Of a stretch of 64,000 bases of DNA, positions 3,192 to 64,000 are shown in pieces (the first letter of the stretch is position 1; each line of letters opens with the position of its first letter). The stretch is from the NCBI GenBank assembly GCA_963779615.1, contig CAVZZA010000001.1, forward strand, positions 512,001 through 576,000, written 5' to 3'. The position numbers and the translations under genes are program-made. The notes beneath the pieces are model-generated. The model was not told where the DNA came from, made no database searches, and saw only the letters and a program-made list of their open reading frames with translations. Origin of the DNA: an uncultured Nitrososphaeraceae archaeon. GTDB taxonomy: Archaea > Thermoproteota > Nitrososphaeria > Nitrososphaerales > Nitrososphaeraceae.

Positions 3192-3294
3192 AGCCCCTTC
3201 CCTATTGCAATGGTTTTGATATGGTGAAAAAGAGAATTAAGGACCAAGGTTTGATGCAGCTTAAGATAAGAAATATCGACGGACTTTTTAGTAA

Positions 3295-3543
3295 TCATAT
3301 AAAGTCAGCACCACCATTTGCTATTCGCGGAGATTTTCTATGACCAGCATTTTTCATTTCTTCATCGCATCTATTGAATTTCTTTAAGCACACAGAACAA
3401 AGATTTAGGGAAATTGTTCCATATTCTCCTGCACTTGCATCAATCTTCTTTAAAGCTGTGTTTGAACATTCCAATCCGTCGCAAATGCCTTTATAGGACT
3501 TTTCTGTATTTTCATATAGGGGTTTGATATCTGATACCATCAC
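3295..3543 (-). CDS. Small Cys-rich (Zn-finger-like) hypothetical protein
   Basis: CDGLEC...CSVC motif and AGGTG SD; co-oriented with RHH and Rep. Confidence 0.6.
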   Translation of the reverse strand: MMVSDIKPLYENTEKSYKGICDGLECSNTALKKIDASAGEYGTISLNLCSVCLKKFNRCDEEMKNAGHRKSPRIANGGADFI

Positions 3544-3548
3544 CTATC

Positions 3549-3743
3549 TCACCTTGTAGGTTCGCTTGATACTAGGCCTTCGAAACCAACATCAAGCGAG
3601 CTTTTTTTTATGTTTCTTTTTCGATGTGACCTTTCGAGTAACCTCAACAAATATCTACTACGCGGTATATCCCTTCTGTCTATGTCTATCTGCTCTATCA
3701 CTTTTTTTGGGAAAGATATTCCCACTGAAATGGTGTTTGCCAT
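3549..3743 (-). CDS. Ribbon-helix-helix (CopG-like) DNA-binding protein
   Basis: Likely start ATG 3743: MANTISVGISFPKKVIEQIDIDRRDIPRSRYLLRLLE shows an alternating beta strand followed by two helices. Confidence 0.7.
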   Translation of the reverse strand: MANTISVGISFPKKVIEQIDIDRRDIPRSRYLLRLLERSHRKRNIKKSSLDVGFEGLVSSEPTR

Positions 3744-3827
3744 TTTAATAATATTGCAGAGTTTACTATAAAATGCATTTTTGTTATATACCCTTTTTAA
3801 ACAAAAGGGTATCATTTCAATCATTGA

Positions 3828-5016: not shown

Positions 5017-5028
5017 ATTTAATTTTAA

Positions 5029-6564: not shown

Positions 6565-6631
6565 ATGTTTATTGTATTAAAAATCTTGTTTTTTTAAGAT
6601 AAAAGCATTCTGTATAAACCCATGAATGGAG

Positions 6632-6706
6632 TGGAGGGAATGGGATTTGAACCCATGACCACCTGCGTGTAAGGCAGGTATCCTAACCAGTCTAGACAAC
6701 CCCTCC
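6632..6706 (-). tRNA. tRNA-Val(TAC)
   Basis: GGAGGGG...CCTGC-CTTACAC-GCAGG...ATGGG-TTCAAAT-CCCAT-TCCCTCCA folds as a cloverleaf; no intron. Confidence 0.97.
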
Positions 6707-20137: not shown

Positions 20138-21298
20138 GTGGGAATACCTACATTTACATCAGGAGATCCTGTACTTGATTTTTTCTATATATTATTCAAT
20201 GGCATCTCAGAAGTACCTTTGTTTAGTTCTCCTGTAACTGGCATTTTAATCCTTGTTGGAGTGTTAATTGCTTCTCGGAAAGCTGGTATGATGATGGTAT
20301 TAGCTGGATTAGTAGGGGCTGGCACGGCAATATTATTAGGTGCAGATTACGGTCTCGTAACTTTTGGTTTATTCGGTTATAACTCTATTTTAACTGGAAT
20401 GGCTTTTTGGTCTGGACCGTTTGTGAAAGCAAACAGGGTAACCCTATCCATTTCAATATTTGGTGCTGCCGTAACTGCCGTTGCTTGGATGGCATTTGGG
20501 CATTTTATGGGAGATATATTTAGTCCAGACGATAGGGGGGGAATAATAAACTCTGTTGCTATCCCTGGGTTTACATCCTCTTTCATTTTCACAACTTGGG
20601 CAATGATGTATGCGAGCAAACGTTATGGTTATGATGTGTGGCCTGAAGTTCCAGAACCACCAAGGGCTGAAAGTCTTGAAGGGGTAAAAGAGGAGACCAA
20701 TAAAGATATTGATAGCCCTGTTCAAACAACTGAGACAGAGTTCAAATGGACCGCAAAAGAATTTATCAAAGCAACTCTAAAGGGTGTATCTCAAGTTACC
20801 TTTGTAGAAAACTGGAAAACTGGTCTATTGTGGGTTATTGGGTTGACACTGGCTTTTGAACTAGCTCCGTTTATAGCTGGTGTTCAGGATAGGCCTTGGT
20901 TTACTAATGCTTACACTGCAGGATGGGACGAGTATTCACCATTATACCTTGCGGGGGTTATGGCCTTAATAGGATCTGCGATAGGTGCAGCTTTATCTAT
21001 ACTAATGAAGTTACCAACACAGGAGACTCGAATTGGTTTGCATGGATTTAACCAGGTACTTGTTATGATTGCATTAACCAGTTTTGTTCCGTTAACTTGG
21101 CAATCATTCTTGATGGCTGTATTTGCAACTGTAACCTGCTCTGTAGTGGTAATGCCTGCTCTGCAGCGTTTCTTTGGGCAGTGGGGCCTACCTGCACTTA
21201 CCGGACCTTTCGTATTTACTGCGTGGGTATGGTTAATTGCAATATTTGGATTCACAAATATTCCTGCGGGAATTGGCTGGTCTAGACCGCAAGGTTAA
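20138..21298 (+). CDS. Urea transporter (UT/Yut, SLC14-like channel)
   Basis: Internal two-fold repeat (NGISEV/KGVSQV; GLFGYN/GLHGFN), GLPALTGPF signature, and position upstream of ureABC. Confidence 0.9.
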   Translation: MGIPTFTSGDPVLDFFYILFNGISEVPLFSSPVTGILILVGVLIASRKAGMMMVLAGLVGAGTAILLGADYGLVTFGLFGYNSILTGMAFWSGPFVKANRVTLSISIFGAAVTAVAWMAFGHFMGDIFSPDDRGGIINSVAIPGFTSSFIFTTWAMMYASKRYGYDVWPEVPEPPRAESLEGVKEETNKDIDSPVQTTETEFKWTAKEFIKATLKGVSQVTFVENWKTGLLWVIGLTLAFELAPFIAGVQDRPWFTNAYTAGWDEYSPLYLAGVMALIGSAIGAALSILMKLPTQETRIGLHGFNQVLVMIALTSFVPLTWQSFLMAVFATVTCSVVVMPALQRFFGQWGLPALTGPFVFTAWVWLIAIFGFTNIPAGIGWSRPQG

Positions 21299-22114: not shown

Positions 22115-22417
22115 ATGATGTTGGTCCCAAGAGAAATAGAAAAAATGATGATATGGACTGCAGCCCAAATTGCAGAGGGAAGAAAACAAAGAGGAGTAAA
22201 ATTAAATCATCCCGAATCAATAGCGTATATATCTAATTTTGTAGTTGAAGGGGCACGCGAAGGAAAATCAGTCGCAGAACTGATGATGTCTGCACGGAGT
22301 ATTTTAAATAAAGAAGATGTAATGGACGGAGTATCGGAAATGATTCACACAGTTCAGGTGGAAGCTACATTTCCAGACGGAACAAAGCTGGTAACTGTGC
22401 ATGATCCAGTTCAATAG
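22115..22417 (+). CDS. ureA: Urease subunit gamma
   Basis: PREIEK, KLNHPES and [18 protein letters not shown] motifs. Confidence 0.97.
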
Positions 22418-22486
22418 TAGGTTATGAAAAATGATTAAAAAAATTATATATAAATCAAACTTGAAAGGAGGAGGTATTGTTACACA

Positions 22487-22861
22487 ATGATACCTGGAGA
22501 ATATGTTTTATCCGAAGGAGATGTTTTGTGTAACGAGAACAGAAAAACGATAAAGATTACTGTAAAACATACTGGTGACAGGCCTTGTCAAATCGGTTCA
22601 CATACACATTTCTTTGAGATCAATAAAGTTCTTGATTTCCCTAGGAAAGAGGCATTTGGCTTTAGGTTGAATATACCCGCCGGTACCTCTGTGCGATTTG
22701 AACCAGGTGATACTAAAGAAGTAGAACTGTGTGAATTAGGGGGTACGAGAGTCTGTTTTGGTTTTAATGGCTTAACTATGGGAAGCATGAAATCTTCTAA
22801 TATAAAAAAATCCGCATTTGAAAAAGCAAAATTCCAGGGATTTAAAGGAATGGGTAATTAG
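22487..22861 (+). CDS. ureB: Urease subunit beta
   Basis: MIPGE, TGDRPCQIGSHTHFFE and RLNIPAGTSVRFEPG motifs. Confidence 0.97.
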   Translation: MIPGEYVLSEGDVLCNENRKTIKITVKHTGDRPCQIGSHTHFFEINKVLDFPRKEAFGFRLNIPAGTSVRFEPGDTKEVELCELGGTRVCFGFNGLTMGSMKSSNIKKSAFEKAKFQGFKGMGN

Positions 22862-22874
22862 AAAGAGGTAATGC

Positions 22875-24605
22875 ATGATGGTATTAAAATTAACAAAAAA
22901 ACAATATTCTGAATTATATGGTGCAACGAAAGGTGATAAAATCCGTTTAGGCGATACTGATATCCTTATTGAAATAGAAAAAGATTTGATCTCACATGGA
23001 GACGAATGTGTTTTTGGGGGTGGTAAAACTTTAAGGGATGGTTTAGCCCAAACTTCTGGGGTTACTAATGCAAACGGTGCCTTGGACTATGTCATCACCA
23101 ATGCCGTTGTACTTGATCCGGTGATTGGTATAGTAAAAGGTGATATCGGAATAAAAGATGGAAAAATTGCGGGAATAGGAAAGGCTGGTAATCCCTTAGT
23201 GATGGATGATGTGGATAGAAACCTAACTGTTTCTGCTTGTACAGAAGCCACTGCAGGTGAGCACACAATATGTACCCCTGGACACTTTGATACCCATATT
23301 CACATGATTTCTCCACAACAGTATATCGATGGAATAAGCAATGGTGTGTGTAATATGATAGGTGGTGGTACAGGTCCTGCTGATGGAACTAACGCCACAA
23401 CGTGCACCCCTGGCTCATTTAATATAAGTAGAATGCTAGAAGCGGTGGAGGATATACCTGTTAACTGGGGATTCTTAGGAAAAGGTAACGATTCGCACCC
23501 CTCATTAGCCACTCAAATGGAGCAAATAGAAGCAGGAGCATGTGGACTTAAAGATCACGAGGACTGGGGAACAACCAACACAGTATTGGATGCGTCATTA
23601 CGAGCTGCTGATTTGACCGATACACAGGTTGCAATACACACAGATTCCATAAATGAATGTGGTTACCTTGAAGATACAATAAATGCAATAGATGGCAGGG
23701 TTGTACATAGCTATCATACAGAAGGGGCAGGCGGTGGACATGCACCTGATATCATTGCTATAGCTTCTGAACAAAATGTTTTGCCATCCTCAACTAACCC
23801 AACTAGGCCATTCACAGTAAATACTGTTGATGAGCATCTGGACATGCTGATGTTTTGCCACCACTTGAATCCTGCTGTTGCTGAAGATGTGGCCTTTGCC
23901 GATTCTAGAATTCGTGCTGAAACAATAGCTGCTGAAGATGTGATGCATGACGAAGGTGTTTTGAGTATGTACTCTTCCGATAGCCAAGCCATGGGCAGAA
24001 TTGGAGAGGTGGCTCTTCGCGCTTGGCAAACTGCAGACAAGATGAAAAAGATGAGGGGAAGGTTAAAAGAAGAAGCAGGTGACAACGATAATTTAAGAGC
24101 AAAAAGGTATATTGCAAAAACTACCATTAACTGCGCAATTACCCATGGTGTGTCTGACTACCTTGGTTCTCTTGAGGTAGGAAAATATGCAGATTTAGTG
24201 ATGTATAACACTGCTTTTTTTGGTGCAAAACCAAAAATGGTTTTTAAGGGTGGCTTTATTGCCTGGTCTATAATGGGTGACCCTAATGCTTCTCTTCCGA
24301 CCCCGGAGCCAGTCTATTATCGACCAATGTTTGGTGCAATGGGCCGTGCAGTCCAAAAAACTTCCTTTACATTCATGTCTAAAAAGGCTATAGAATTGGG
24401 GGTTCCCCAAAAATTGGGCCTAGAAAAAACAGTATTGGCTGTCAAAAACTGCAGAAATATTGGCAAGAAAGATATGATTTGGAACGATAAAACACCGGAA
24501 ATTACAGTTGACCCCGAAACATATGAAGTAAAAGTTGATGGAGAAATTGCAACAGTTGATCCAGCAAAGGAATTAAGTCTTGCGCAAAGATACTTTATGG
24601 CATAA
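22875..24605 (+). CDS. ureC: Urease subunit alpha
   Basis: [37 protein letters not shown] and SSDSQAMGR motifs. Confidence 0.98.
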
Positions 24606-24691
24606 ATTTCTATTTTTATAATATAGAAAAATTATACATAATATTTTCTTTTTTTTGATATATTTATCTTTTAGGACTTTTGATTTAACTT

Positions 24692-26251
24692 ATGTCTTCG
24701 CCTCAAAATTATGGAGTTTGGAAGCCAATTGCAGAAAATATCGAGTTTAATGCGCTAGAATCAAATTCTAATGCAGTAATGGCAGTAGCAGATACAGTGA
24801 GAACCACTCTGGGACCAAAAGGTTTGGACAAACTCTTGATTGACCAATCTATGAACAGGCATGTTTCCAATGATGGTGTTACAATTCTCTTATCGCTGAG
24901 GGCGATTCATCCGGTCGCAAAAATGATAGTGGAAATTGCTGAGAGACAGGAACAAAAAGTAGGTGATGGTACTACCACAGCAGTTATTCTTGCAGCGGAA
25001 ATGATTAAGGAAGGCAAGAGGTTAATTCGGGAGCTAGCTGTTCATCCTACAAAAGTTGTTGAAGGCATAGAAAGTGGAGTAAAGCACTCTTGCGACCTGT
25101 TAAAAAAAAGTGCGAAAAAAATCAGTTTAGACGAAGTAGAACTTGATCAAATAGTAAAAACAAGTTTGTCATCAAAATTGGATGGAAATGTATTACATAA
25201 AATGGTTGTTTCTGCTTTAAGGGCTGCAGGTAAGGATGCAATTTATGGTGACAAATATGATTTTGATAAATCACTAAAGGTAGTCAGACGAACTGATATG
25301 GATGATAAAATTGTTAATGGAGTTATTTTAGAGCGAAGAAGATTAGACCCAGAGCTGCCTAATAAAGTAAATAACGCTAAAATACTAATATTGAAATTAG
25401 ATTTAAAGCCTGTTAAAGAATCTTGGATTAAAGAGAACAGTAAATATCAGGATATCCTTAAAATGGAAAACGATAGATTGGAAAAGTCCAAAAAAATAGT
25501 TGATGCGATTCTTGAAACAGGGGCAAATACCCTTTTTGTCGCATCCCCTGAAGTTGACCAAATAATTGAGGATTTGTTTGTATCAAAAGGCATTTTTGCA
25601 GTCCACATTTCAAATGAAGAAATAGACTATTTGTCAAGATATACCGGAGCAAAACCTGTAAGAAATTTGGATGATTTAAAAAATAGAGATATTCTCGGAA
25701 CTTCTGAAAAAATATATGAAGACGAAGATATCGGAATAATTTATTTAGAAAACGGTTTAGGAAAAAAAATTATTACAATTCTAATCTCTGGATCCACCAA
25801 AGAAACATCTCTGGAAAGATGGAGATCAACAATTGACGGAATAAATGCTGCAGAAGCTGCATTAAACTATGGGATTGTTGCAGGAGGAGGCGCAGCAGAA
25901 TTACACATCATTGAAAAAATCAAACAGCTTAAGCTTAAGGGACTAGAACAGGTTGGACTTGAGGTTGTTACCTCTGCACTCGAAAGCATAATGAGGCAGA
26001 TATTAACAAATGCTGGATTTAACGGACTTGAAAAGGTGATGAATGCAAAAGCTTCTCCTGAAGGTTATGGTGTTGATATTGATACCGGTGATATTGTTGA
26101 CATGATATCAAAAGGTGTTTTAGATCCTGTATTGGTTAAAACAATGGCCTTGGAAGCATCCGGCGAAATGGCAAAATCCGTATTAAGGATAGACAAAAAC
26201 CTTGCAGCCGATGACCTTAACCCACAAGCAGTTGCTGATTCCAGAAGGTAA
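24692..26251 (+). CDS. Divergent group II (thermosome/TCP-1-like) chaperonin embedded in the urease operon
   Basis: TTLGPKGLDK, SNDGVTIL, GDGTTT, GIVAGGGAAE, GVLDP and VLRID motifs. Confidence 0.92.
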   Translation: MSSPQNYGVWKPIAENIEFNALESNSNAVMAVADTVRTTLGPKGLDKLLIDQSMNRHVSNDGVTILLSLRAIHPVAKMIVEIAERQEQKVGDGTTTAVILAAEMIKEGKRLIRELAVHPTKVVEGIESGVKHSCDLLKKSAKKISLDEVELDQIVKTSLSSKLDGNVLHKMVVSALRAAGKDAIYGDKYDFDKSLKVVRRTDMDDKIVNGVILERRRLDPELPNKVNNAKILILKLDLKPVKESWIKENSKYQDILKMENDRLEKSKKIVDAILETGANTLFVASPEVDQIIEDLFVSKGIFAVHISNEEIDYLSRYTGAKPVRNLDDLKNRDILGTSEKIYEDEDIGIIYLENGLGKKIITILISGSTKETSLERWRSTIDGINAAEAALNYGIVAGGGAAELHIIEKIKQLKLKGLEQVGLEVVTSALESIMRQILTNAGFNGLEKVMNAKASPEGYGVDIDTGDIVDMISKGVLDPVLVKTMALEASGEMAKSVLRIDKNLAADDLNPQAVADSRR

Positions 26252-26259
26252 TTATAACA

Positions 26260-26700
26260 ATGAAAATCCGCCATTGCGTTGAAAAATCTAATGTTGAAAA
26301 ATCTCTAATCATAATGGATCCGTTACAAATAAGGCATGCAGTCATAAAGTCCGGAAAAATATCATCTTTGTCCGGTTTAATAGACCCAAAATCACATCTT
26401 AATTTGGATTACCCTCCTCATTTGGTTAAAAATTGCATAATATCTGAAAAATTTGAGTTAGGTTCTGCAGTTGAAATATCTGATGGCAATTTTATATTTG
26501 CCCAAATAAGACCTGATAGTTACCAACACCTTGGTAAGTATGATTATACTCAAAACTTAATGAACATGATTGAGTCTGTAAAGAAATTAAGAAACATAAA
26601 TACAGACATCACTACTAATACTAATATTGATGCACATAAAATTAAATCTTCTCCAACATGTGCTTCAGATAAAATAAACAACAACAATCAAAATCAATGA
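26260..26700 (+). CDS. Hypothetical protein co-transcribed between the chaperonin and ureE
   Basis: 146-aa ORF 8 bp after the chaperonin stop and 39 bp before ureE. Confidence 0.7.
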   Translation: MKIRHCVEKSNVEKSLIIMDPLQIRHAVIKSGKISSLSGLIDPKSHLNLDYPPHLVKNCIISEKFELGSAVEISDGNFIFAQIRPDSYQHLGKYDYTQNLMNMIESVKKLRNINTDITTNTNIDAHKIKSSPTCASDKINNNNQNQ

Positions 26701-26739
26701 AATTGTTTTTATTGTCAATAAGAAACTATATGATATCTT

Positions 26740-27276
26740 ATGTTAACGGTCACAACTATTTTAGGGAATATAAAAAAGGATCCTATTTTAAATCAAAGAT
26801 ATGGAGAGTTATTCCAAAAAAGCCTTGTTGAAAGCGTAATAATTCAAAGATCAGAGTCAGAAAAAGTCAGGATGAGAAAAACATCAGACAAAGGCACGGA
26901 CATAGGGTTTATTTTGCCATCCAGAACTAGGCTTAAAGACAAAGATGTAGTTTTTTTGGATGACACTAAAATGATCCTGGTAAAACTGTCTCCCGAACTT
27001 GTAGCAGTGTTAAGTTTTAAGGATTACCCAAATCATGAATACGATGGACAACACAAGCCTGATTTGATAAACATCGCAATAAAAATTGGCCATACTATTG
27101 GTAACTTACATAGACCGTTAAAATTAGAGGAAAATAAAATCATTTTTCCACTCCAAACTGTAGAAGAGATAGACCTTTTCCAAAGACTTTTGCCCAGTTT
27201 AAAGGATCATATTGTTATAAAATCAGATAACCTAATTTTTGAACCTGATCAAGGATTTGATATACATGAACATTGA
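26740..27276 (+). CDS. ureE: Urease accessory protein UreE
   Basis: RMRKTSDKGTDIG, IGHTIGNLH and C-terminal HEH. Confidence 0.9.
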   Translation: MLTVTTILGNIKKDPILNQRYGELFQKSLVESVIIQRSESEKVRMRKTSDKGTDIGFILPSRTRLKDKDVVFLDDTKMILVKLSPELVAVLSFKDYPNHEYDGQHKPDLINIAIKIGHTIGNLHRPLKLEENKIIFPLQTVEEIDLFQRLLPSLKDHIVIKSDNLIFEPDQGFDIHEH

Positions 27277-27988
27277 AAAGGATAATACCTTTGTATCTGT
27301 AGATGATATTAGCTTTTTACAGTTATCTGATTCATTTTTTCCTACGGGATTATATACCACTTCAAATGGTTTGGAATCATTATTTTACAATAGGGACAAA
27401 AAAAAATTAACCTATACCGATGTTTTTGATTTCATTAAAGCGTATCTATCGCAACAAGTGGGGCCGACAGATTGTTCTGTCATTGGTAATGTATACAGTT
27501 GCATTCAAAAAAGTGATTTTTCGACACTGCTGGAGTTAGACAGTGTGTATTATTTTATGCGGTTGATAGAAGAAACCAGATCTGCTTCCATAAGGTCTGG
27601 AATTCAGCTCTTAAGGTGTATCTCTTCCTTTACTGGCAACAATGAATATGTTAACTTTTATTTAAAAAGCATTAAAGATGGTCAGGCAAAAGGCGTCTAC
27701 CCTGTCTCTTTTGCATTATCGTGTAATGCCATGAATATAAAAAAAGAGAGATCTGGCTTAATGTTGCTTTATGGTTTTGCCGTTAGTGTAGTTGGGGCTG
27801 CGTTACGTTTGGGTATTCTCCAGCATTATGATGGACAGCGGATTATTCACGAAATGAAACCTATAATTTTATCAAGTGTAACAAAGAACATTAATCGATC
27901 CTATTCTAATATGTGGCAGTTCATTCCCCAGTTAGATATAATTCAAATACAGCATGAACAGATGGATTCCAAAATGTTTATTACATGA
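27266..27988 (+). CDS. ureF: Urease accessory protein UreF
   Basis: LQLSDSFFPTGLYTTSNGLE, AALRLG and C-terminal HEQMDSKMFIT; likely ATG at 27266. Confidence 0.92.
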   Translation: MNIEKDNTFVSVDDISFLQLSDSFFPTGLYTTSNGLESLFYNRDKKKLTYTDVFDFIKAYLSQQVGPTDCSVIGNVYSCIQKSDFSTLLELDSVYYFMRLIEETRSASIRSGIQLLRCISSFTGNNEYVNFYLKSIKDGQAKGVYPVSFALSCNAMNIKKERSGLMLLYGFAVSVVGAALRLGILQHYDGQRIIHEMKPIILSSVTKNINRSYSNMWQFIPQLDIIQIQHEQMDSKMFIT

Positions 27989-28006
27989 TTTTTTATCTAG
28001 TTTTCT

Positions 28007-28663
28007 GTGTCAATTTCACGGATTCCTCGCATTGGAATAGGTGGACCGGTAGGTTCGGGAAAAACAATGTTAATCGAACAAATAGTCCCTATTTTAAAGG
28101 ATAAAGGATATAATGTTGGCATAATATCCAATGACGTTGTATCAAAGGAAGATGCTGAGAGAATGCGAAAAAACCTTGCCACGGAAAAGGGTTTGATGTC
28201 AGAGGACCTAGTTATTGGTGTCGCTACAGGAGGTTGCCCGCATACTGCTGTAAGGGAGGATCCATCCATCAATATATCTATTGTAGAAGAGATGGAGATC
28301 AAACACCCAAACCTTGATTTGATAATTATCGAAAGTGGTGGTGATAACATTACAACTACCTTTAGCCCTGCACTAGCTGATTATTTCATTTATATAATCG
28401 ACGTTTCCAGTGGAGACAAATATCCAAGAAAACGAGGTCTTGGAATAGAAACATGCGATCTCTTGGTAATTAATAAAATTGATATTGCTTCCTATATTGG
28501 TGCAGATCTTAGTATAATGGAAAGGGATGCAAAGATTATACGAGGCGATAAGCCTTTTGTTTTTGTCAATAGTAAGACTGGCCAGGGCATTAAAGAGGCA
28601 ACAAATTATATTATTAAAGACATATTATTTAATGCGACTCCAAAATCTAAAATAACTATTTGA
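28007..28663 (+). CDS. ureG: Urease accessory GTPase UreG
   Basis: GGPVGSGKT, TGGCPHTAVRED, ESGGDN and NKID motifs. Confidence 0.97.
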   Translation: MSISRIPRIGIGGPVGSGKTMLIEQIVPILKDKGYNVGIISNDVVSKEDAERMRKNLATEKGLMSEDLVIGVATGGCPHTAVREDPSINISIVEEMEIKHPNLDLIIIESGGDNITTTFSPALADYFIYIIDVSSGDKYPRKRGLGIETCDLLVINKIDIASYIGADLSIMERDAKIIRGDKPFVFVNSKTGQGIKEATNYIIKDILFNATPKSKITI

Positions 28664-28682
28664 TTAGAATGCGGTAATTTCA

Positions 28683-29618
28683 ATGAGTTTTTATGATCTT
28701 TCTTTTTGTACGCCAAAAGATATTCCACATGAAATTTTGGAATATGACGCGCAATTAGAACAATTAGCTGTGGGAACGTCTGGTAAGCTTGGTGTTTTAA
28801 AATTACATTTAGAGAACGATAAATTTAATAATAAAACATCAATAAAGAATCAGTTTTATAAAGTTCCATTGTGTATCAAACGTGCTCTTTATCTCGAAGA
28901 AACCTGCCCTGAAATGGCATATATTTATATTATTTCGCCATCCGGAGGGATATTGCAAGGGGATAGATATAGAACTGATATAACGCTTAAAAACCATGCC
29001 AAATCCCACATTACTACACAAAGTGCAACAAGAATTTATAAAATGAATAAAAATTTTGGGACTCAAATAATAAATTTAGATGTCGGTGAAAATTGTTATC
29101 TGGAGTATATTCCTGATCAAATAATACCATTTAAAAATTCCAAATACTATCAGGTTTCTGATGTTAAAGTTCATGATAGTGCCACTTGCGTATATTCTGA
29201 GATATTGACGCCGGGGAGAGTAGCTAGTAATGAATCTTTTGAGTATGATATATGTTATATGAAAGTCAAAGCTGAAAACCATTTAAACAAATTAAGGTTT
29301 ATTGACATAGCAAAACTTGAGCCTAAAAAAGAAAACATCAAATCTTTTGGCATCATGAATGATTTTGATATACTAGGGAATGTATATATTTTGTTGCCAA
29401 AGGATCAAGTGACGGATGTTAAAAATGAAATAAATATGATGTTAAACAATCTAAATAACGTTATAGGGGGATGCACAAAATTGCCCGATGACGGTGGGTT
29501 AATGGTTCGAATACTTGGTCGATTTGTTTTTGATATTAGAAATATAATATATTCAATTCTTGGGATAGTTAGAAAAAAAATTCTAAATGTTTCATTTAGT
29601 GGGATACGAAAAATTTAG
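28683..29618 (+). CDS. ureD: Urease accessory protein UreD
   Basis: SPSGGILQGD, TTQSATRIY, LEYIPDQIIPF and PGRVA motifs. Confidence 0.93.
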   Translation: MSFYDLSFCTPKDIPHEILEYDAQLEQLAVGTSGKLGVLKLHLENDKFNNKTSIKNQFYKVPLCIKRALYLEETCPEMAYIYIISPSGGILQGDRYRTDITLKNHAKSHITTQSATRIYKMNKNFGTQIINLDVGENCYLEYIPDQIIPFKNSKYYQVSDVKVHDSATCVYSEILTPGRVASNESFEYDICYMKVKAENHLNKLRFIDIAKLEPKKENIKSFGIMNDFDILGNVYILLPKDQVTDVKNEINMMLNNLNNVIGGCTKLPDDGGLMVRILGRFVFDIRNIIYSILGIVRKKILNVSFSGIRKI

Positions 29619-53279: not shown

Positions 53280-54507
53280 ATGGGAGTTATAAAAGCATTA
53301 AAGTGTAGAGAATGCGGCTTAGAATATTCCCCAAGATTTATATATATATGTGAAGATTGTTTTGGACCTTTAGACGTATTATATAAACTTGACGATAATA
53401 TAACAAAACATACTTTTGAAAATAGGTCTGATTTAACTTATTGGAGATATTTTGAAATTCTTCCAGTAGAACATAAGAAAAATATTGTTAGTTTGAATGG
53501 CTCTATCACTCCATTACAAAAAGCAGATAATTTGGGCCAAAAATTAGGGGGATTAAAAAATCTATATATTAAAAACGATTCTGTAAATCCAACTTTTTCT
53601 TTTAAGGATAGACCCGCAGGAGTTGCAGTATCAAAAGCTAAAGAGATGAATTTGCCTGCAGTTGGCTGTGCATCAACTGGTAATCTTGCTTCTGCAACCG
53701 CAGCACATGCATCCAGGGCTCAACTACCATGTTATGTTTTTGCCCCTTTTGATTTAGAACACGTAAAAATAGCTCAAGCTTTATCATACGGCGCAAAGTT
53801 TGTAGCAGTTGATGGTACGTATGATGATGCTAATAGATTAGCGTCTGTTATAGGAGATTCCAATGGTTATGGTATAGTCAATATAAATATGAGGCCTTAT
53901 TACGTAGAGGGTTCAAAAACTTTAGCTTTTGAGGTATTGGAACAGTTAAACTGGACTGTTCCCGATGTGTTGGTAATTCCGGTTGGTAGCGGAGTCTATG
54001 TTGAACTCTATTTGTAAAGGATTTGAAGAAATGATGAATTTGGGAATAATCCCTGATATTTCCAATTTGAGAATAATTGCAGCACAGCCTTATGGGTGTG
54101 CACCAATTGTAGATGCTTATAAAAATAAAGTTAACGAAGTAATTCCGGTAGAAAAACCTGATACTATCGCAAAGAGTCTTGCGATCGGGGATCCTGGCGA
54201 TGGATTGTATGTTTTAAAACGCCTTAGACAATTTAATGGAATTGGAGAAGAGGTTAATGATGACGAGATAAAACGTGCTATTCTTTTACTTGCACAAACC
54301 GAAGGTATTTTCACAGAGCCTGCTGGGGGTGTATCTGTTGGTGTGATGAAAAAACTAATTGAAGAAAATAAAATCGATAAAGACGAAAAAGTTGTGTGTT
54401 ATGTTACTGGTAACGGACTTAAAACCACCGAGTCTATTATTGATCTTCTTCCTGCTCTTCATCCAATTAAACCTGATTTGCAATTAGTTTCTGCAATGAT
54501 GAATTGA
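53280..54507 (+). CDS. Threonine-synthase-like PLP enzyme with N-terminal Zn ribbon; split by a +1 frameshift near 53994
   Basis: NPTFSFKDR, ASTGN and EGSKT in ORF 53280-54017; EGIFTEPA and TGNGLK in ORF 53983-54507. Removing one base restores PVGSGxMLNSICKG. Confidence 0.85.
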
Positions 54508-54549
54508 ACAAACGGATATAAATCTAAAAATGGTGGTGTAAATTATATA

Positions 54550-55893
54550 TTGGCTAGAGTAGAATTTGTAATTCCCTCCGTTTTAAACAAAGGCGCTGGG
54601 GAAAAAAAACTATCGCTTGATGCCTCGACTTTAGACGAGGCATTTAGTATTATTTCTAATATGTTAGGTGATGATTTTAAACGTAGAGTCATAGATCTTA
54701 ATGGTAGACCCAGAGCATTGATTAATATTTATATCAATGGGAAAAATATTCGTTTTAATAATACCGGAATGAATTCCGTGCTTAATGATGGTGACTCAGT
54801 TTATATATTACCTGCTGTTGCAGGTGGTGCAGAAATAACTAGCGAAGATATGATACGCTATTCCAGGCAAATCATGCTTGAAGAAATTGGTTATGTTGGA
54901 ATGGAGAAACTCAGAGATGTAAAAATATGCGTTGTGGGTGCAGGAGGAATTGGAAATCCTGTGGTCACGCAATTGGTTGGAATGGGTGTGGGCAAAATTA
55001 AGTTAGTAGATAGAGATGTGGTGGAAATTTCTAACTTGCATAGACAGCATTTGTATGCTGAAGCAGATGTTGGTAAAGTTAAAGTAGAAGCAGCTCAAGA
55101 ACGTTTACAAAAAATGAATTCTGGTGTAGATATAGAAGCTGTTCCTATCTCAGTGACTCCATTTACAGCTGACAATATAATTAAAGATTGTAATATTGTT
55201 ATTGATGCTTTGGATAGTATTGATGCAAGATATGCCTTAAATGATGCATGTTTAAAACAGGGAATACCTTTTATTTATGCAGGGGCCCTAGGGATGGTTG
55301 GTTCTGTGTGTACTATTATACCGCATGAAAGTGCTTGTCTTAGGTGTATTTTTCCCGAATTATCGGAAGATGAAATGCCTACATGCAGCACTGAGGGAGT
55401 ACATCCATCCATCCTTTACCTTGTTGCTGGAATCCAAGTTTCTGAGGCAGTAAAAATCATTTTAGGTCAGCAACCATCACTTGTGAATAAGTTACTTTAT
55501 ATAGACCTTAACGATTTAGTTTTTGATAAAATTCAGATGTATAGGCATAATGAATGTACTTCATGTGGATTGAATGTAAACAAAAGGATTGTCCAAGCAC
55601 CATCATTAATGGTGGAAGAGCTGTGTGGTCGGAATAGGGGAAAAAGAACCTATACCGTTACCCCTGCCCAAATTAAAAATGACATCAATTTGTTGAATAT
55701 ATTAGAAAATGCCGAATCTCAGGGTTATACAATAACGTCTAAAGGTAATTTGGGTATAACCGTTTCTAATCAAAACAAATTACTTATTAGCTTTCTTACA
55801 AGTGGTGCTGCAACTATAGTAGGTGCAAAAAATGAAGAGGAAGCATTATCTATCTATAAAACTTTTACAAATGAGATACAAACAACAAATTAA
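54550..55893 (+). CDS. Ubiquitin-like sulfur carrier (MoaD/ThiS/SAMP) fused to a MoeB/ThiF-type E1 adenylyltransferase
   Basis: Beta-grasp N-domain ending ILPAVAGG, then RYSRQI, GAGGIG, SNLHRQ, ACLRC and CTSC. Confidence 0.92.
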   Translation: MARVEFVIPSVLNKGAGEKKLSLDASTLDEAFSIISNMLGDDFKRRVIDLNGRPRALINIYINGKNIRFNNTGMNSVLNDGDSVYILPAVAGGAEITSEDMIRYSRQIMLEEIGYVGMEKLRDVKICVVGAGGIGNPVVTQLVGMGVGKIKLVDRDVVEISNLHRQHLYAEADVGKVKVEAAQERLQKMNSGVDIEAVPISVTPFTADNIIKDCNIVIDALDSIDARYALNDACLKQGIPFIYAGALGMVGSVCTIIPHESACLRCIFPELSEDEMPTCSTEGVHPSILYLVAGIQVSEAVKIILGQQPSLVNKLLYIDLNDLVFDKIQMYRHNECTSCGLNVNKRIVQAPSLMVEELCGRNRGKRTYTVTPAQIKNDINLLNILENAESQGYTITSKGNLGITVSNQNKLLISFLTSGAATIVGAKNEEEALSIYKTFTNEIQTTN

Positions 55894-55961: not shown

Positions 55962-56602
55962 ATGTTATTAAAACTCCAATCTTTTCCTATGATTGCACCC
56001 AAAGAAAACGTTGCAGATAATGATGAGATTAATTTAAAGCATCTTTATTTTAAGTCTAAAAAACTACAAGATGGTGATACTGAAGAAGAGCTAGAGGAAG
56101 AAAAAAAACTACAAGATGGTGATACTGAAGAGGAAAAAAAACTACAAGATGGTGATACTGAAGAAGAAGAGCTAGAGGAAGATGATGATGAGGAAGAAGA
56201 GTAGAGGAAGAAGAGCTAGAGGAAGATGATGATGAAGAAGAAGAGCTAGAGGAAGAAGAAGAACTAATCCCTAAATCAAATACAAAAAATTCAGCTAAAA
56301 AAAATTCTATTTTTAAAGATAAAGATGTTGATCTAACGCCTATCAACAAATCCTTGGATAAATCTTTCAAAGAAATTCAAAAAATTCAACAGACTGTTCA
56401 AAGCTCTCAAAAAAGCCTTAAAACCATAGAAAAACAATCTATGTTAATAAAGCAAATTCAATCTGAAATGAAGGAAATTAACAAAAAATTAACAAAAATT
56501 GAAAAAAATACCACTACTAGTGTATCTAAACCCGCAGCAAAAAACATTTCTTCAAAAACTACTCAGAAAAAAAACGATAATAAAAAGAAAAAGACTAGAT
56601 AG
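55962..56602 (+). CDS. Acidic low-complexity repeat protein with coiled-coil and basic tail; interrupted by a 1-nt deletion (TAG at 56202-56204)
   Basis: Repeat unit GAAGAGCTAGAG appears as GAAGAGTAGAG at about 56200. Restoring the C joins ORF 55962 to ORF 56354 in frame. Confidence 0.65.
56058..56263 (+). repeat. Coding tandem repeats (KKLQDGDTEEE x3; EELEED units)
   Basis: AAAAAACTACAAGATGGTGATACTGAAGA occurs three times, plus several GAAGAGCTAGAGGAAGA copies. Confidence 0.85.
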
Positions 56603-58858: not shown

Positions 58859-59665
58859 TCAAAAGATGGGCTCCCACAATTTGTGTTTAGTGTAAGGATT
58901 TTTTAGCATTTCAAAATACTTGTAACCTGAATTGTCCAATACAAATTCAAATCCGTAAGGGCTGTATCCTTTTTTCAATTCTTCTGCAAGGCACCATTTT
59001 AAAGCATCTCGTATCCTTTTTTTCCATTCTGGTTTGCAGTATACATACCATAAATTATGAGCACCCCTTAAATCTATAAGAGTTTGCATTAATTCATTTG
59101 ATAGTTTTGAATAATGTCTATTTGTTATTTCGATATTGATGTCTTCCCATGATGGTGTTACCCAGCTGGCTATTTTTTCAAACCCGTGACCGTCAAATTC
59201 TGCGGCAAGACTTAATCCCTGATCTAAGGTTGTAACTATAACTTCTGTCTTTGTAGATATTTTGTCTCTGTAGTCAACTCCTGGTTCCATCCATCCGACA
59301 AATATTACATCATAGTTTTTGTCAATGCCATTATACGCATCAGCAATTCTGATATGGTTGGGCTTGATTCTTCCTACGCTATAAAAAATTTCTGCACTTT
59401 TTTCAATACCCTCTGCCTCAGGAATGTATTCCCTAATTTTTTCTAAAAAGTCTCCATAACCACAACCTGCGTCTAAATATGTTGGATTTTCCGATACGGT
59501 TTTGGCTATTGAGACTATTCTGTGCACATCTATTTTTCTGTATGTGAAATATGAACCGCAAAGAAATGGGAAAATAAATCTCTCATGGAATGGTGAAACA
59601 GCATATTTTCTAAAGTCATTTAGAGCACTCAATGCTTTCCTAATTTCATTAATTTGCGGAGGCAT
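58859..59665 (-). CDS. Class I SAM-dependent methyltransferase-like protein (paralogue A)
   Basis: YLDAGCGYG motif I, GIEK and YDVIFVGW. Confidence 0.8.
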   Translation of the reverse strand: MPPQINEIRKALSALNDFRKYAVSPFHERFIFPFLCGSYFTYRKIDVHRIVSIAKTVSENPTYLDAGCGYGDFLEKIREYIPEAEGIEKSAEIFYSVGRIKPNHIRIADAYNGIDKNYDVIFVGWMEPGVDYRDKISTKTEVIVTTLDQGLSLAAEFDGHGFEKIASWVTPSWEDINIEITNRHYSKLSNELMQTLIDLRGAHNLWYVYCKPEWKKRIRDALKWCLAEELKKGYSPYGFEFVLDNSGYKYFEMLKNPYTKHKLWEPIF

Positions 59666-60405
59666 CTTTATTCTTCAATTTTTATTTCCCATAAGTAAAG
59701 GCCGGAATTTAGTGGAAGAGCTTCTTTGAAGCCAAACCCACACTCATCTAAAATCTCTTCATGTTTATACTTTTCTTCGATAGCTTTCATTTTCAATTCT
59801 TCAAGAGTTTCTTTTAGACTTTTTTTCCATTCTGGTTTGCAGTATACATACCATAAATTATGAGCACCCCTTAAATTTCTCAACTCTTGACTTTCTATAT
59901 CTTTTAGGTTGTCAGTATAGTATTTGTTCATTAGCTCTGTATTTACATCTATCCATGATGGTGTTACCCAGCTGGCTATTTTTTCAAACCCGTGGCCGTC
60001 GAACTCACACCCTCCATTTATTCCACACTGCCCTCCTTTATCAAAAGTTGTAATTACGCATTTTGTAGCTTCAGATATTTTGTCTCTGTAGTCAACTCCT
60101 GGTTCCATCCATCCGACAAATATTACATCATAGTTTTTGTCAATGCCATTATACGCATCAGCAATTCTGATATGGTTGGGCTTGATTCTTCCTACGCTAT
60201 AAAAAATTTCTGCACTTTTTTCAATACCCTCTGCCTCAGGAATGTATTCCCTAATTTTTTCTAAAAAGTCTCCATAACCACAACCTGCGTCTAAATATGT
60301 TGGATTTTCCGATACGGTTTTGGCTATTGAGACTATTCTGTGCACATCTATTTTTCTGTATGTGAAATATGAACCGCAAAGAAATGGGAAAATAAATCTC
60401 TCATG
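59255..60405. repeat. 333-bp identical direct repeat (59255-59587 = 60073-60405) within the two methyltransferase genes
   Basis: Base-by-base comparison by eye; offset 818 bp. Confidence 0.9.
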
Positions 60406-60480
60406 ATCGCTATCATGATTTATACGGAATTTGACTAGTTCTCTGTTTGCGTTTTTAATGTCTGCAATAGAAAAAGCCAT
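59668..60480 (-). CDS. Class I SAM-dependent methyltransferase-like protein (paralogue B)
   Basis: Same motifs as paralogue A; its stop lies 2 bp before the paralogue A start. Confidence 0.8.
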   Translation of the reverse strand: MAFSIADIKNANRELVKFRINHDSDHERFIFPFLCGSYFTYRKIDVHRIVSIAKTVSENPTYLDAGCGYGDFLEKIREYIPEAEGIEKSAEIFYSVGRIKPNHIRIADAYNGIDKNYDVIFVGWMEPGVDYRDKISEATKCVITTFDKGGQCGINGGCEFDGHGFEKIASWVTPSWIDVNTELMNKYYTDNLKDIESQELRNLRGAHNLWYVYCKPEWKKSLKETLEELKMKAIEEKYKHEEILDECGFGFKEALPLNSGLYLWEIKIEE

Positions 60481-61728: not shown

Positions 61729-63054
61729 GTGAAGGTTTCTATTTCGGGAATTAGAGGAATATTTGGGGTTGATCTAAGCCTTCAGGAAATACGTAGGTTT
61801 TCAAGGCTTTTTGGTTCGTATGTTCATAGTAATTTTGATCAATCATCTTGTGTTATTGCTCAAGACAGTAGGCCATCGGGAAAAATTATCCGTGATGTTG
61901 TAATAGGCTGTCTTTTGGGGCAAGGGCTAAATGTTGATGATTTAGGCATTGTTCCTACTCCTGTATTATTTCGAGAATCAAGAAAATACAGCGGTTCAAT
62001 AATGATTACTGCTTCTCATAATCCAATGGAATGGAATGGACTAAAGCTATTAGTTAACGGAAGAGGATTATTTGAAGAAGAATTAAATCTTTTATTAAAA
62101 CACCCAATCCGTGAGTACACAAGTATTGGCGAGTATCACAAAATTAATTCAAGTTATTTGAATGATTTGATGAATTATATTCCTATTTCTAATGATATTG
62201 AACCCGATTTTAAAATCGGCCTGGATTTTGGAGGTGGTGCTGCCTGTAATTATGTTAATAGATTGTGTCAAGTTTACAAAATAAAATACTTGAGTATAAA
62301 CGATCGGTACGGTTTTTCTTCTAGAGGTCCAGATCCAACCTCTGACCATTTAGATGAGTTACGTGAGTTGGTTAAATTAAACAAACTAAATTTTGGGTTT
62401 GCATTTGATATGGATGGCGACAGGTTAGTGATTGTTAATAATAAAGGGGAACTTCTTAGCCCTGATTTGACCCTTTTATTGTGTATCTCAGGTGCAATTC
62501 GCAATAAGATTAACAAGTTTGTCATAAGCTTAGATTCAAGTATTTCAATTGAAAAATATATCAAAGCATATGGCGGTAAAGTCTTTTATTCCAAGGTTGG
62601 GGAATCTAATGTTATAAAAAAAATATCTGAAGTTAATGGTGAATCTGGCGGCGAGGGTAGCAGTGGCGGTTTTATCATGCCCAACTTTACATCATGCAGA
62701 GATGGACTTTTAGCTAGTATAATGATTTGTTCATTAAATCAAAAAATGATAGATGAATGTCTTGACCTGGCTTCAAATTTTAAACAAATCAGAACAAAAC
62801 TCCCAATCAACCCTGAAATTAACCTAAATGATATGCTTGAAAAAATATTTGAGGTTCTAACACCCTATTCAAGTCAAGTGATAGATGATGATGGATTTAA
62901 ATTTATTCTTGATGATGACTCCTGGGTTCTTGTTAGAGCATCGAATACAGAACACGTTCTAAGAATATCTTTAGAATCTGAAAAAAATCGCTGCCATTCC
63001 CTATATGAGTTGATTTATAATAAAATATACGAGATTTATGAAAAGAGTTCATGA
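61729..63054 (+). CDS. Phosphomannomutase/phosphoglucomutase family
   Basis: SGIRG, ITASHNP, FDMDGDR, GGEGS and VLVRASNTE motifs. Confidence 0.93.
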   Translation: MKVSISGIRGIFGVDLSLQEIRRFSRLFGSYVHSNFDQSSCVIAQDSRPSGKIIRDVVIGCLLGQGLNVDDLGIVPTPVLFRESRKYSGSIMITASHNPMEWNGLKLLVNGRGLFEEELNLLLKHPIREYTSIGEYHKINSSYLNDLMNYIPISNDIEPDFKIGLDFGGGAACNYVNRLCQVYKIKYLSINDRYGFSSRGPDPTSDHLDELRELVKLNKLNFGFAFDMDGDRLVIVNNKGELLSPDLTLLLCISGAIRNKINKFVISLDSSISIEKYIKAYGGKVFYSKVGESNVIKKISEVNGESGGEGSSGGFIMPNFTSCRDGLLASIMICSLNQKMIDECLDLASNFKQIRTKLPINPEINLNDMLEKIFEVLTPYSSQVIDDDGFKFILDDDSWVLVRASNTEHVLRISLESEKNRCHSLYELIYNKIYEIYEKSS

Positions 63055-64000
63055 AAAGCAGATATTGTCTTTACTTATGTCTAAATTGGGTCCTGACAAT
63101 ATAGATCCTTTATTTGGTAAAGATGATATCTCTATGGTTTCATTAAATAAAATTGTGAAAATGGCAAACAACGACTATTCCTTAGCAATTACCTGCGATA
63201 TGTTGGTAGAACATACTGATGTACCGCCCAAAATGACATTCAGGCAAATAGCTAGGAAGTCTCTTGTTTCTTGCATGAGTGATTTAAGTACAAAAAGGAA
63301 TAAAACCAATTGTTGCATTAATATCTTTAGGAATACCTAGATACCTAAACAGGTGGAATGTTGATGATATCATCAAGGGGTTTTCGCTGACATCAAAGGA
63401 GTTTGGTTTTTTTGTAATCGGCGGTGATATTAATGAATCTAAAGAGCTTATTATTGACTGTTGCATGTTGGGTTTTCCCAGCAATAAATTGAAGGTCCCT
63501 AGAAGAAATGGTGCTGCTGCTGGTGATTATGTAGTAGTTTCCGGTTCATTTGGATATAGCTCTTCAGGTTTAAAGATTTTACTAAATGATTTAAGGTGCC
63601 CTAATTATCTATTTCGAAAGATGTCTATTGACTCTGTTTTAAATCCATCTCCCCCCATTAAATTTGGATTAAAATTGTCTCACTATCTTTCCTCCTCAAT
63701 AGATTCAAGTGATGGTCTTGCTTTATCGTTATACGAATTAGCTAAAGGGAGTAATGTCGATCTATTGATATATAAGGATAAAATACCGATTCCTTCAGAA
63801 TTGCAAAAATTTTCAACAATGAATAATCTCGACATAGATGATCTGATATATTATGGTGGAGAAGAATATCATGTAATTGGAACAGTTTCGAAAAAAAACC
63901 TAAGAAAAGTTAATGCCCTGGCAAAAAAACACTGTCTGAATTTTTTCATCATCGGTAGGGCCGTTGACGGCATAGGCAAAGTTTTTGAAATCTGCTCTAA
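63038..64000 (+). CDS. thiL: Thiamine-monophosphate kinase; +1 frameshift in the A-run at 63292-63296; runs off the window
   Basis: KDD, TCDMLVEHTD and SDL in frame 1. After the shift the frame reads KGIKP, IGGD, RRNGA, SIDSSDGL and GGEEY and stays open to 64000. Confidence 0.88.

Follow-up and report, generated by a model that had tools for sequence, protein, structure and literature searches.

A probable MetM/MetO-type route to homocysteine in an ammonia-oxidising archaeon, with the sulfur carrier fused to its E1

Two adjacent genes in a 64,000-nucleotide stretch of contig CAVZZA010000001.1 from an uncultured Nitrososphaeraceae archaeon (the window, to which all coordinates without a prefix refer) probably encode a MetM/MetO-type route to homocysteine in an ammonia-oxidising archaeon, in which the sulfur carrier is fused to the E1 that activates it. 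The first gene specifies an enzyme that resembles threonine synthase (ThrC) and depends on pyridoxal 5'-phosphate (PLP); the second specifies the carrier-E1 fusion. In the proposed route, homoserine kinase would supply O-phosphohomoserine, the ThrC-like PLP enzyme (53280-54507) would swap its phosphate for sulfur from a thiocarboxylate on the C-terminal glycine of the MetO-like carrier, giving homocysteine, and MetH would methylate homocysteine to methionine. Translation would yield the carrier as the first 93 residues of the sole ThiF/MoeB E1 in the genome. Because a free C-terminal Gly-Gly is chemically required for adenylation, this precursor would have to be cut after GG93, likely by one of two unlinked JAMM metalloproteases; the freed E1 would then adenylate the MetO-like carrier, a separate MoaD and a SAMP2/Urm1-like carrier. 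More speculatively, a domain with the fold of TATA-binding protein (TBP), placed where MoeZ and Uba4 have a rhodanese, may take part in sulfur transfer through an invariant Cys. The analysis shows directly how the genes are built and conserved, to which clade and motif group the enzyme belongs and which pathway genes the genome has; we infer the enzyme chemistry, the cleavage after GG and the protease. The features of the locus are as follows (ORF, open reading frame; aa, amino acids; nt, nucleotides).

53280-54507, + strand: predicted gene for a MetM-type (ThrC-like, PLP fold type II) homocysteine synthase, here split into ORFs 53280-54017 and 53983-54507
53304-53372, + strand: N-terminal four-Cys zinc ribbon CRECG...CEDCFGPL (CRECG 53304-53318, CEDCFGPL 53349-53372)
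53598-53612, + strand: SFKDR motif with the PLP-binding lysine, K109, which is invariant in 28 MetM-type sequences
53880-53921, + strand: NINMRPYYVEGSKT, in the ThrC-like enzyme the MetM-type version of the canonical ThrC motif NS.NP[FY]R.EGQKT (from a motif table of 55 sequences)
53995, + strand: single extra T, GGAG[T]CTATG, causing a +1 frameshift; relatives read GSG-A-MLN here
54508-54549, + strand: spacer of 42 nt, with the A/T-rich ATATAAAT about 30 nt before the TTG start of the next ORF
54550-55893, + strand: fusion ORF of 447 aa with a TTG start, comprising MetO-like carrier, linker, ThiF/MoeB E1 and TBP-like C-terminal domain
54550-54828, + strand: beta-grasp sulfur-carrier domain, residues 1-93, ending ILPAVAGG (PAVAGG 54811-54828, GG codons 54823-54828)
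54829-54855, + strand: nine-residue linker AEITSEDMI between the GG and the E1 motif RYSRQ, presumed cleavage site and new E1 N-terminus
54856-55569, + strand: E1 adenylation domain, with RYSRQ, GAGGIGN, DRDVVEISNLHRQ, the CxxC pairs CLRC and CTSC, and a conserved Cys in PTCSTEGV (55378-55401)
55591-55890, + strand: TBP-like C-terminal domain, about 100 residues long, whose EELCGR (55615-55632) contains an invariant Cys

The frame of the ThrC-like gene opens at 53280 and closes with a stop codon at 54505-54507. In its zinc ribbon C9, C12 and C24 are invariant, and C27 nearly so, among the 28 MetM-type sequences. On the 447-aa ORF, Pfam recognises ThiS at residues 54-93 (PF02597, 29.9 bits, cut-off 22.5) and ThiF at residues 104-337 (PF00899, 256.7 bits); the last ~100 residues have no Pfam match, and no rhodanese match was found anywhere on the protein. 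Contigs from RNA libraries span the spacer (54399-55823 in X9, 54399-55875 in X3), which does not in itself prove a single transcript, and ATATAAAT may be a separate archaeal promoter. An Rfam scan of the window gave no riboswitch and two tRNAs only. A first-pass annotation of this DNA had listed the CRECG...CEDCFGPL ribbon, the NINMRPYY.EGSK motif, the 42-nt spacer, PAVAGG, the read-through into the E1 and EELCGR, and sequence and Pfam recover every one of these. The single intact ThrC-like ORF that it assumed is, however, two frames; the frameshift at 53995 had escaped it, and it held nothing on the E1 being the genome's sole E1, on the TBP-like fold of the C-terminal domain or on the fusion being already in print as MoaD-MoeB.

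The source genome (G000; 5 contigs, 92.5% complete), apparently that of a soil ammonia oxidiser whose proteins have near-identical counterparts named for Ca. Nitrosocosmicus, was compared with 40 relatives, namely 24 congeners and 16 genomes from other families, making 41 genomes in all; the closest relative is G018. Kinship among these genomes means that the presence and absence counts given here describe a pattern and are not a statistical test.

Protein thiocarboxylates are known sulfur donors in amino acid synthesis. In the CysM/CysO/Mec+/MoeZ system of Mycobacterium tuberculosis, the substrate of a fold-type II PLP enzyme is an O-phospho amino acid and the sulfur comes from a protein thiocarboxylate, with the participation of a JAMM hydrolase and an E1. 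The archaeal enzyme differs in being ThrC-like rather than CysM-like, and its product would be homocysteine; CysM-type clusters do occur in two relatives, G026 and G030. A MetM/MetO/Mec/MoeZ pathway was reportedly described in Streptomyces albulus by Hasebe et al. in Applied and Environmental Microbiology in 2024. The passages on it in GapMind 2026 (PMC13759103, and Appendix 4 of the bioRxiv version) name MetO, a hydrolase Mec that matures MetO, MoeZ and MetM as the components of the Streptomyces pathway, and state that MetM is often misannotated as threonine synthase. S. albulus MetM is given as UniProt A0A059WBP2, MetO as A0A059W7F4, Mec as A0A059W3G7 and MoeZ as A0A401R754 in an excerpt of PMC13759103, and an upstream S-adenosylmethionine (SAM) riboswitch and a neighbouring metO are ascribed to its gene in one of PMC12172450. 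As far as these excerpts describe the S. albulus system, the archaeal locus resembles it in having a ThrC-like enzyme beside a GG-ended ThiS/MoaD-type carrier, an E1 for that carrier, JAMM hydrolases in the genome and O-phosphohomoserine from ThrB, and the archaeal enzyme belongs to the same clade, and has the same motifs, as bacterial genes that lie downstream of a SAM riboswitch, as S. albulus metM does. Unlike the S. albulus system, the archaeal one has its carrier fused to the E1, a TBP-fold Cys domain instead of the rhodanese of MoeZ, no riboswitch, unlinked JAMM genes and a sole E1.

Comparison of motifs and phylogeny supports assignment of the window enzyme to the MetM type rather than to canonical threonine synthase. 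The genome has five PALP-family genes: IlvA, TrpB, a CysK-like gene, the ThrC-like gene of the window and a second ThrC-like gene at G000:C5:84977-86392. This last carries canonical motifs, and is a second thrC of the kind that the first-pass annotation proposed to look for. Bit scores alone cannot tell the two ThrC-like proteins apart, because both pass the cut-off of the NCBIfam thrC equivalog TIGR00260 (167.1 bits, against 278.2 for an intact orthologue of the window gene and 191.7 for the second ThrC) and both resemble solved threonine synthases, the intact orthologue scoring 216.7 bits to 6cgq and being ~40% identical to solved enzymes. The intact orthologue stays below the cut-off of PRK08197 (283.6 against 303) and below those of the other ThrC models. 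Motifs do separate the two, as set out below for the second ThrC and the sole ThrC of an Anaeromyxobacter genome on one side and the window gene on the other.

Motif 1: STGNTSAS in the second ThrC and the Anaeromyxobacter ThrC, STGNLA in the window gene
Motif 2: NS.NP[FY]R.EGQKT in the second ThrC and the Anaeromyxobacter ThrC, VNIN.RPYYVEGSKT in the window gene
Motif 3: GN.S after the glycine loop in the second ThrC and the Anaeromyxobacter ThrC, PVGSG(A) in the window gene
Motif 4: no AGG at the position in the second ThrC and the Anaeromyxobacter ThrC, EPAGG in the window gene

The second ThrC itself reads STGNTSAS, NS.NPFR.EGQKT and GN.S, and printed alignments to the solved threonine synthases 6cgq and 2zsj likewise display the canonical motifs. 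Where canonical enzymes have STGNTSAS, NP[FY]R.EGQKT and GNAGN, the window protein has STGNLA, RPYYVEGSKT and GSG(A); the comparison is partly circular, as the canonical group (P0167, P0179, P0213, the sole Anaeromyxobacter ThrC and the genome's second ThrC) was picked partly by those motifs. The archaeal proteins share with riboswitch-linked bacterial proteins the set STGNLA, VN[IV]N.RP[YF]Y.EGSKT, P.[GA]SG[AS] and E.AGG.

Relatives of the ThrC-like protein, 150 in number, were drawn from a search of 1.84 billion cluster representatives. One relative, P0130, is 42% identical to it and is named a Micromonosporaceae "threonine synthase" in its sources. Among 80 metagenome-contig loci of P0130 relatives, 20 were scanned with Rfam, and 18 of these 20 have a SAM riboswitch (RF00162, 48-84 bits, gathering score 44.4) directly upstream on the same strand. 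A downstream ORF of ~91 aa ending IPAVAGG is present in 32 of the 80 loci, with one extra residue after the GG in two of the 32, and also in locus L046. The best 120 matches to P0130 bear the names of Micromonosporaceae genera or metagenome sources only, with no Streptomyces among them.

In a careful IQ-TREE analysis (52 rows, LG+G4; three long rows were left out, and L097, which has internal stops, had been removed before), eight archaeal ThrC-like proteins fall in a clade of 33 rows supported at 100/100, together with all 14 SAM-riboswitch-linked bacterial rows, a Thermoplasmata protein and ten unnamed representatives, and the canonical-motif rows fall outside it. The gene of the Thermoplasmata protein precedes a carrier gene ending FIPAVAGG. 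A quick mixture-model tree of 55 rows returned the same grouping at weaker support (82-94). By tree and motifs alike, then, the enzyme groups with SAM-riboswitch- and carrier-linked MetM-type proteins, apart from canonical-motif ThrCs, in keeping with the first-pass annotation's view that it is not a threonine synthase.

Two other interpretations of library proteins were rejected. A high-GC representative (P0129) read as actinobacterial comes from a Thermoplasmata archaeon, and long ThrC-like representatives taken for carrier fusions are of other kinds: among 20 scanned with Pfam, four of 611-627 aa have LeuA_dimer and nine of 478-499 aa have PadR. PadR-fused and LeuA_dimer-fused ThrC-like proteins are both numerous in the protein library. 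A relative's locus (L145, G033:C1, ORF 1174-2592, - strand) encodes a ThrC-like protein with a PadR-type winged helix and Met in place of the PLP lysine (SFMDRG), which may be a ligand-sensing regulator rather than an enzyme.

The pathway inventory agrees with the absence of metB, metC and metY that had been anticipated. ThrB (homoserine kinase, 225.5 bits) and the homocysteine-binding domain of MetH (245.4 bits) are present; at 92.5% completeness we found no real Cys_Met_Meta_PP enzyme (MetB/C/Y/Z; the best PF01053 match, of 29.9 bits, covers profile positions 71-177, a quarter), no HcyBio and no MetX (best match 25.3 bits, a hydrolase). A MetM-like orthologue (at least 49% identity) occurs in 23 of the 24 congeners and 12 of the 16 genomes of other families, and strong PF01053 genes in only five of the 40 relatives (G025, G028, G030, G033 and G040); G012 and G015, closed genomes of the genus, are not among these five. 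G025, G030 and G033, all with PF01053, have no MetM-like orthologue, and G037 has neither. The carrier adjoins the MetM-like gene, by coordinates, in 22 of the 23 congeners and 11 of the 12 other-family genomes that have it, and does so in nine of the ten relatives' loci that were read.

In sequence, the fused carrier has more in common with the carriers that follow MetM-type genes than with MoaD or the SAMP2-like type. Its alignment runs over the full length both with the separate carriers found in sister lineages and with those that bacteria encode downstream of riboswitch-controlled MetM-type genes; identity to 12 bacterial carriers is 28-33% over ~80-90 residues for most, while two align over the last 48 residues only (in a small database). 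Searched against the whole genome, these 12 and one Thermoplasmata carrier each matched the fused carrier domain alone (E 7.5e-8 to 2.2e-4), and none of the 13 matched either of the other two ThiS-family genes. Those are a MoaD ending SGG, directly before MoaE and near MoeA-like and MoaC/MoaB-like ORFs (names given by inspection of the translations), and a gene ending VVHGG that is SAMP2/Urm1-like. The fused domain belongs to the beta-grasp ThiS family, and the strands and helices of an AlphaFold2 model fit that fold.

Of the 24 congeners, 22 have the fusion uninterrupted; in G011 it is broken, and in G009 (86% complete) none was found. G027 and G036 also have it. A separate carrier ORF that stops right after the GG is present in G038, G029 and G034, the carrier and E1 ORFs of G038 being in frame and separated by TAG and one further codon, and G032 has a separate carrier with eight residues beyond the GG. 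PAVAGG is conserved in fused and separate carriers, and no fused form has lost the GG. In G028 and G031, whose E1 is on a different contig, the carrier still adjoins the MetM-like gene.

This attachment of the carrier to the ThrC-like gene, even with the E1 elsewhere, speaks against the ordinary annotation, in which the first gene would be another threonine synthase and the second a MoaD-MoeB fusion that works in molybdenum cofactor synthesis; we hold that reading to be very improbable. In its favour, the fusion goes under the names "molybdopterin-synthase adenylyltransferase" and "ThiF family adenylyltransferase" in its sources, the intact orthologue scores above the cut-off of the thrC model, and the fusion protein, as the only E1, must serve molybdenum cofactor synthesis too. 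But that synthesis has its own MoaD, ending SGG directly before MoaE, and it is the fused domain, not that MoaD, which bacterial MetO-like carriers match; a canonical-motif ThrC exists elsewhere in the genome, and the clade of the window enzyme is under SAM riboswitch control in bacteria. The ordinary annotation also has the literature on its side, since the relevant part of a 2024 survey of fusion/fission protein families in Archaea (PMC11237513) records a MoaD-MoeB fusion, cluster 356.1, in 61 of 98 Thaumarchaeota assemblies and files it under molybdopterin/cofactor synthesis. This is most likely the same protein, so the fusion itself is already catalogued; unlike what the filing in that part of the survey implies, the carrier in the fusion resembles MetO, goes with a MetM-type gene and is not the MoaD of this genome. 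A link to methionine was not found in the literature searched: no paper met in full text ties the fusion or the neighbouring ammonia-oxidiser "threonine synthase" to homocysteine, although the original MetM paper and the GapMind PDF supplements, which lay outside the search, may bear on this. The available portion of the GapMind 2026 supplementary text does not state the homocysteine route of Nitrosopumilus.

The E1 of the fusion is the only ThiF-family gene above cut-off in the genome and therefore must serve all three carriers, the fused one, MoaD and the SAMP2/Urm1-like protein. It has the ThiF domain, nucleotide-binding Gly motif, two CxxC zinc pairs and conserved Cys of ThiF/MoeB E1s, and Foldseek matches this part of the protein to ThiF (1zud, E 2.9e-24), MoeB and Uba4 (E 2.9e-24 to 1.2e-22). 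The full-length AlphaFold2 model has a mean predicted local distance difference test (pLDDT) of 83.0 and a predicted template modelling score of 0.71; pLDDT falls below 50 at residues 91-95 and 101-111, around the GG and linker. In the UbaA/SAMP1-3/HvJAMM1 system of Haloferax volcanii, one archaeal E1 likewise serves several beta-grasp carriers and a JAMM protease acts at the GG end. The present system differs from that of UbaA in the fusion of carrier to E1 and in the extra C-terminal domain, and there is no evidence for protein conjugation; scores to NCBIfam NF047750 (195.8 bits, cut-off 450) and NF041918 SAMP1 (35.6 bits, cut-off 60) are both below cut-off.

The C-terminal domain, modelled alone (pLDDT 85.5), has the predicted fold of half a TBP (1mp9_B, Z 8.2, root-mean-square deviation 3.4, 88 residues aligned; Foldseek TBPs, E 7e-3), and a further match is to the C-terminal domain of a MoaD-related protein from Thermus (1v8c_A, Z 6.3). 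A TBP match at such a Z speaks to fold, not to function. The Cys-Gly-Arg of EELCGR is invariant in nine sequences. This domain occupies the position after the E1 at which a MoeZ/Uba4/MOCS3-type rhodanese was not found. The architecture of E1 plus C-terminal domain is not unique to archaea, because NCBIfam NF009123 aligns across both (209.6 bits, below cut-off). Elsewhere in the genome rhodanese domains give 17 matches in ~9 genes, with unusually many tandem proteins (e.g., C3:754648-755433).

The GG is internal in the primary translation (GG93) and free at the C-terminus of the carrier ORFs of G038, G029 and G034; the unfused E1s of relatives start ~10 residues before RYSRQ. Two genes with an intact JAMM motif (H.H...S..D) were found in the genome, at G000:C3:476285-476731 and G000:C5:163101-163532, both unlinked to the locus, so that the type of protease invoked in the first-pass annotation is at hand; 38 of the 41 genomes have at least one. 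JAMM processing is the most likely route for carrier release, because JAMM genes stand close to E1 genes in three relatives, although none lies in the MetM cluster itself. In G026 (L163, G026:C90) CysM, JAMM and a fusion of ubiquitin-like protein (Ubl), E1 and rhodanese stand in a row; G030 (L164, G030:C54) has CysM, JAMM, a carrier with 15 residues after the GG, and an E1-rhodanese; both clusters are of the mycobacterial type, and both relatives belong to the same taxonomic order as the source organism; and in G037 a JAMM gene lies directly beside the orthologue of the E1 with its TBP-like domain. Sulfur carriers are also translated ahead of a partner in MoaD-MoaE fusions, of which mycobacterial MoaX is an example. 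As in the MoaD-MoaE fusions treated in a passage of PMC11237513, an internal GG would here have to become a free C-terminus, the partner being the activating E1 and not the synthase large subunit.

Several observations weigh against the MetM/MetO proposal. No JAMM gene was found by motif scan within the cluster here, in nine relatives' loci or in 95 other loci, and G038, which is 96% complete and has a separate carrier, gave no Prok-JAB match at E 1e-5, so a tie between JAMM and the pathway is not demonstrable. In the 34 loci most similar to P0130, the Micromonosporaceae query, a riboswitch is present but no carrier ORF adjoins. The ThrC-like gene is broken as assembled. Its assignment to the MetM type was made from the tree, the motifs, the linkage to riboswitches and the order of genes, and not from the sequences of S. 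albulus MetM and MetO themselves. The window enzyme may yet have threonine synthase activity, because its intact orthologue passes the thrC cut-off and is ~40% identical to solved enzymes, and a cyanobacterial homologue, according to an excerpt of PMC12172450, makes threonine and deaminates it in vitro. Finally, the predicted complex of the G018 enzyme and carrier counts in favour of the proposal, but as weak support: its score is 0.43, against 0.00 for the best of three controls, with runs agreeing on at least 74% of contacts and a partner pLDDT of at least 78; of 157 solved complexes 116 reach the mark, as do 2 of 215 mismatched pairs, but at scores of 0.60 or less it is only 18 of the 157 and both passing mismatches.

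The lack of a protease gene in the cluster, the lack of a detectable Prok-JAB in G038, the 34 riboswitch-type loci without an adjacent carrier and the shortness of the linker from GG to E1, just nine residues, would all suit an alternative in which a MetM-type enzyme uses free sulfide or another donor and the beta-grasp domain is never released, being a structural or regulatory part of the E1. We consider this alternative unlikely. It has to contend with the retention of the GG in all fused forms, with the occurrence of the same domain as a free-standing protein that stops right after the GG in three genomes, with the in-frame ORFs of G038 only TAG and one codon apart, and with the lack of any other MetO-like gene in G000. 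The paralogous Ubl-E1-rhodanese fusion of G026 directly follows JAMM and CysM genes, and post-translational cleavage has been proposed as needed for MoaD-MoaE fusions in the part of PMC11237513 that deals with them.

As for the break in the ThrC-like gene, it is very probably an assembly error and not a property of the organism, because the extra T at 53995 is absent from all 13 congeneric loci aligned (from 12 genomes) and from every covering contig of the public runs, and ~6% of compared genes are similarly broken. The two halves match complementary parts of the 295-position PALP profile (PF00291, positions 2-168 and 171-295). The public runs are four, each from a different study. Two are DNA and one is RNA; the fourth was deposited as RNA but carries the flag "probably DNA". 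All four report one base left out at 53995 in every covering contig, as the sole indel, and the contigs are ~99% identical to the window. An intact frame is available in those contigs and in relatives (404-415-aa orthologues in nine of the ten relatives' loci), if not in this assembly. Of 207 ORFs taken from ~380 kb of G018, 129 map to G000 at 70% identity and 80% coverage or more, and eight of these 129 are frameshift-split here. A genome-wide count by overlapping frames gave 577 pairs and was discarded as not interpretable.

If the frameshift were genuine, the strain would have lost the ThrC-like enzyme, along with a similarly broken CysK-like gene, and would need reduced sulfur amino acids from outside. 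In favour of such a loss, each break comes from one extra T that is not part of a homopolymer run, and two of the five PALP-family genes of the genome are affected. We nevertheless judge it very unlikely, given the frequency of split genes relative to G018, a completeness of only 92.5% despite five contigs, the missing T in all covering contigs of the four runs at ~99% identity, and the otherwise undamaged state of both halves (93.7% and 86.5% identical to G018).

The broken CysK/CysM-like gene (G000:C5:46600-47653; extra T in GCAGCG[T]AACTGG, at about 46800) adjoins SerB-like and homoserine dehydrogenase-like genes. It is the only gene of its kind in the genome, and it is 36% identical to the CysM of G026, which, like G030, has a CysM-JAMM-Ubl-E1(rhodanese) cluster. 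With a single E1 and no further carrier in the genome, the MetO-like carrier could also, or instead, feed cysteine synthesis through this enzyme, as in mycobacterial CysM/CysO/Mec. There is an outside chance of this, but the reading stays speculative because the CysK-like gene resembles an ordinary cysteine synthase: among solved structures it comes closest to ordinary O-acetylserine sulfhydrylases (152 bits), and M. tuberculosis CysM ranks far lower (106 bits). Chains 3dwg and 3dki, which we take to be structures of the M. tuberculosis CysM system, are among its solved relatives. The gene is moreover unlinked to the carrier. Gene order joins the carrier to the ThrC-like gene, and does so in 22 of 23 congeners and 11 of 12 other-family genomes.

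Ammonia-oxidising archaea are among the most abundant microbes of soil and sea, and most of the genomes searched have no conventional homocysteine route. If the proposal is right, MetM/MetO chemistry, which was described for Streptomyces as recently as 2024, would fill that gap; the name threonine synthase, which the gene bears in every annotation, would be wrong; the fusion catalogued as a molybdenum-cofactor enzyme would be, or would also be, a methionine sulfur-delivery module; and the locus would offer a natural, testable case of a ubiquitin-like protein that needs cutting from its own E1. A wider reading is conceivable, and we advance it tentatively. Most soil and many marine ammonia-oxidising archaea might obtain all their methionine sulfur via a protein thiocarboxylate, with the carrier born as a polyprotein with the sole E1, so that one carrier molecule would be made per round of E1 synthesis. 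A JAMM protease might switch the pathway on, the TBP-fold Cys domain might replace rhodanese as a persulfide relay, and the carrier may also feed cysteine synthesis.

Other parts of the window bear on different subjects. Right after the E1 gene, 55962-56370 holds a low-complexity acidic ORF with KKLQDGDTEEE repeats and, on the opposite strand, a serine-run ORF. Two tandem paralogues follow on the - strand at 58859-59665 and 59668-60480 (268 and 270 aa); they have long letter-identical internal blocks and differ at both ends, which suggests recent gene conversion. A further gene is frameshift-split relative to a 282-aa G018 orthologue (63038-63337 onward, break near 63295), its first 32 residues lying in one frame and the rest in another, and runs off the end of the window. 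Upstream, at 22115-29615, urease genes form an operon (gamma, beta and alpha subunits, then UreE, UreF, UreG and UreD) that is interrupted between ureC and ureE by a gene for a thermosome-type chaperonin (Cpn60_TCP1, 24692-26248) and preceded by a urea transporter gene at 20138-21295. Near the start of the window, 849-6706 has a phage-integrase-like gene (5032-6564) beside a tRNA gene (6632-6706) and several ORFs without a Pfam match, and may be an integrated element.

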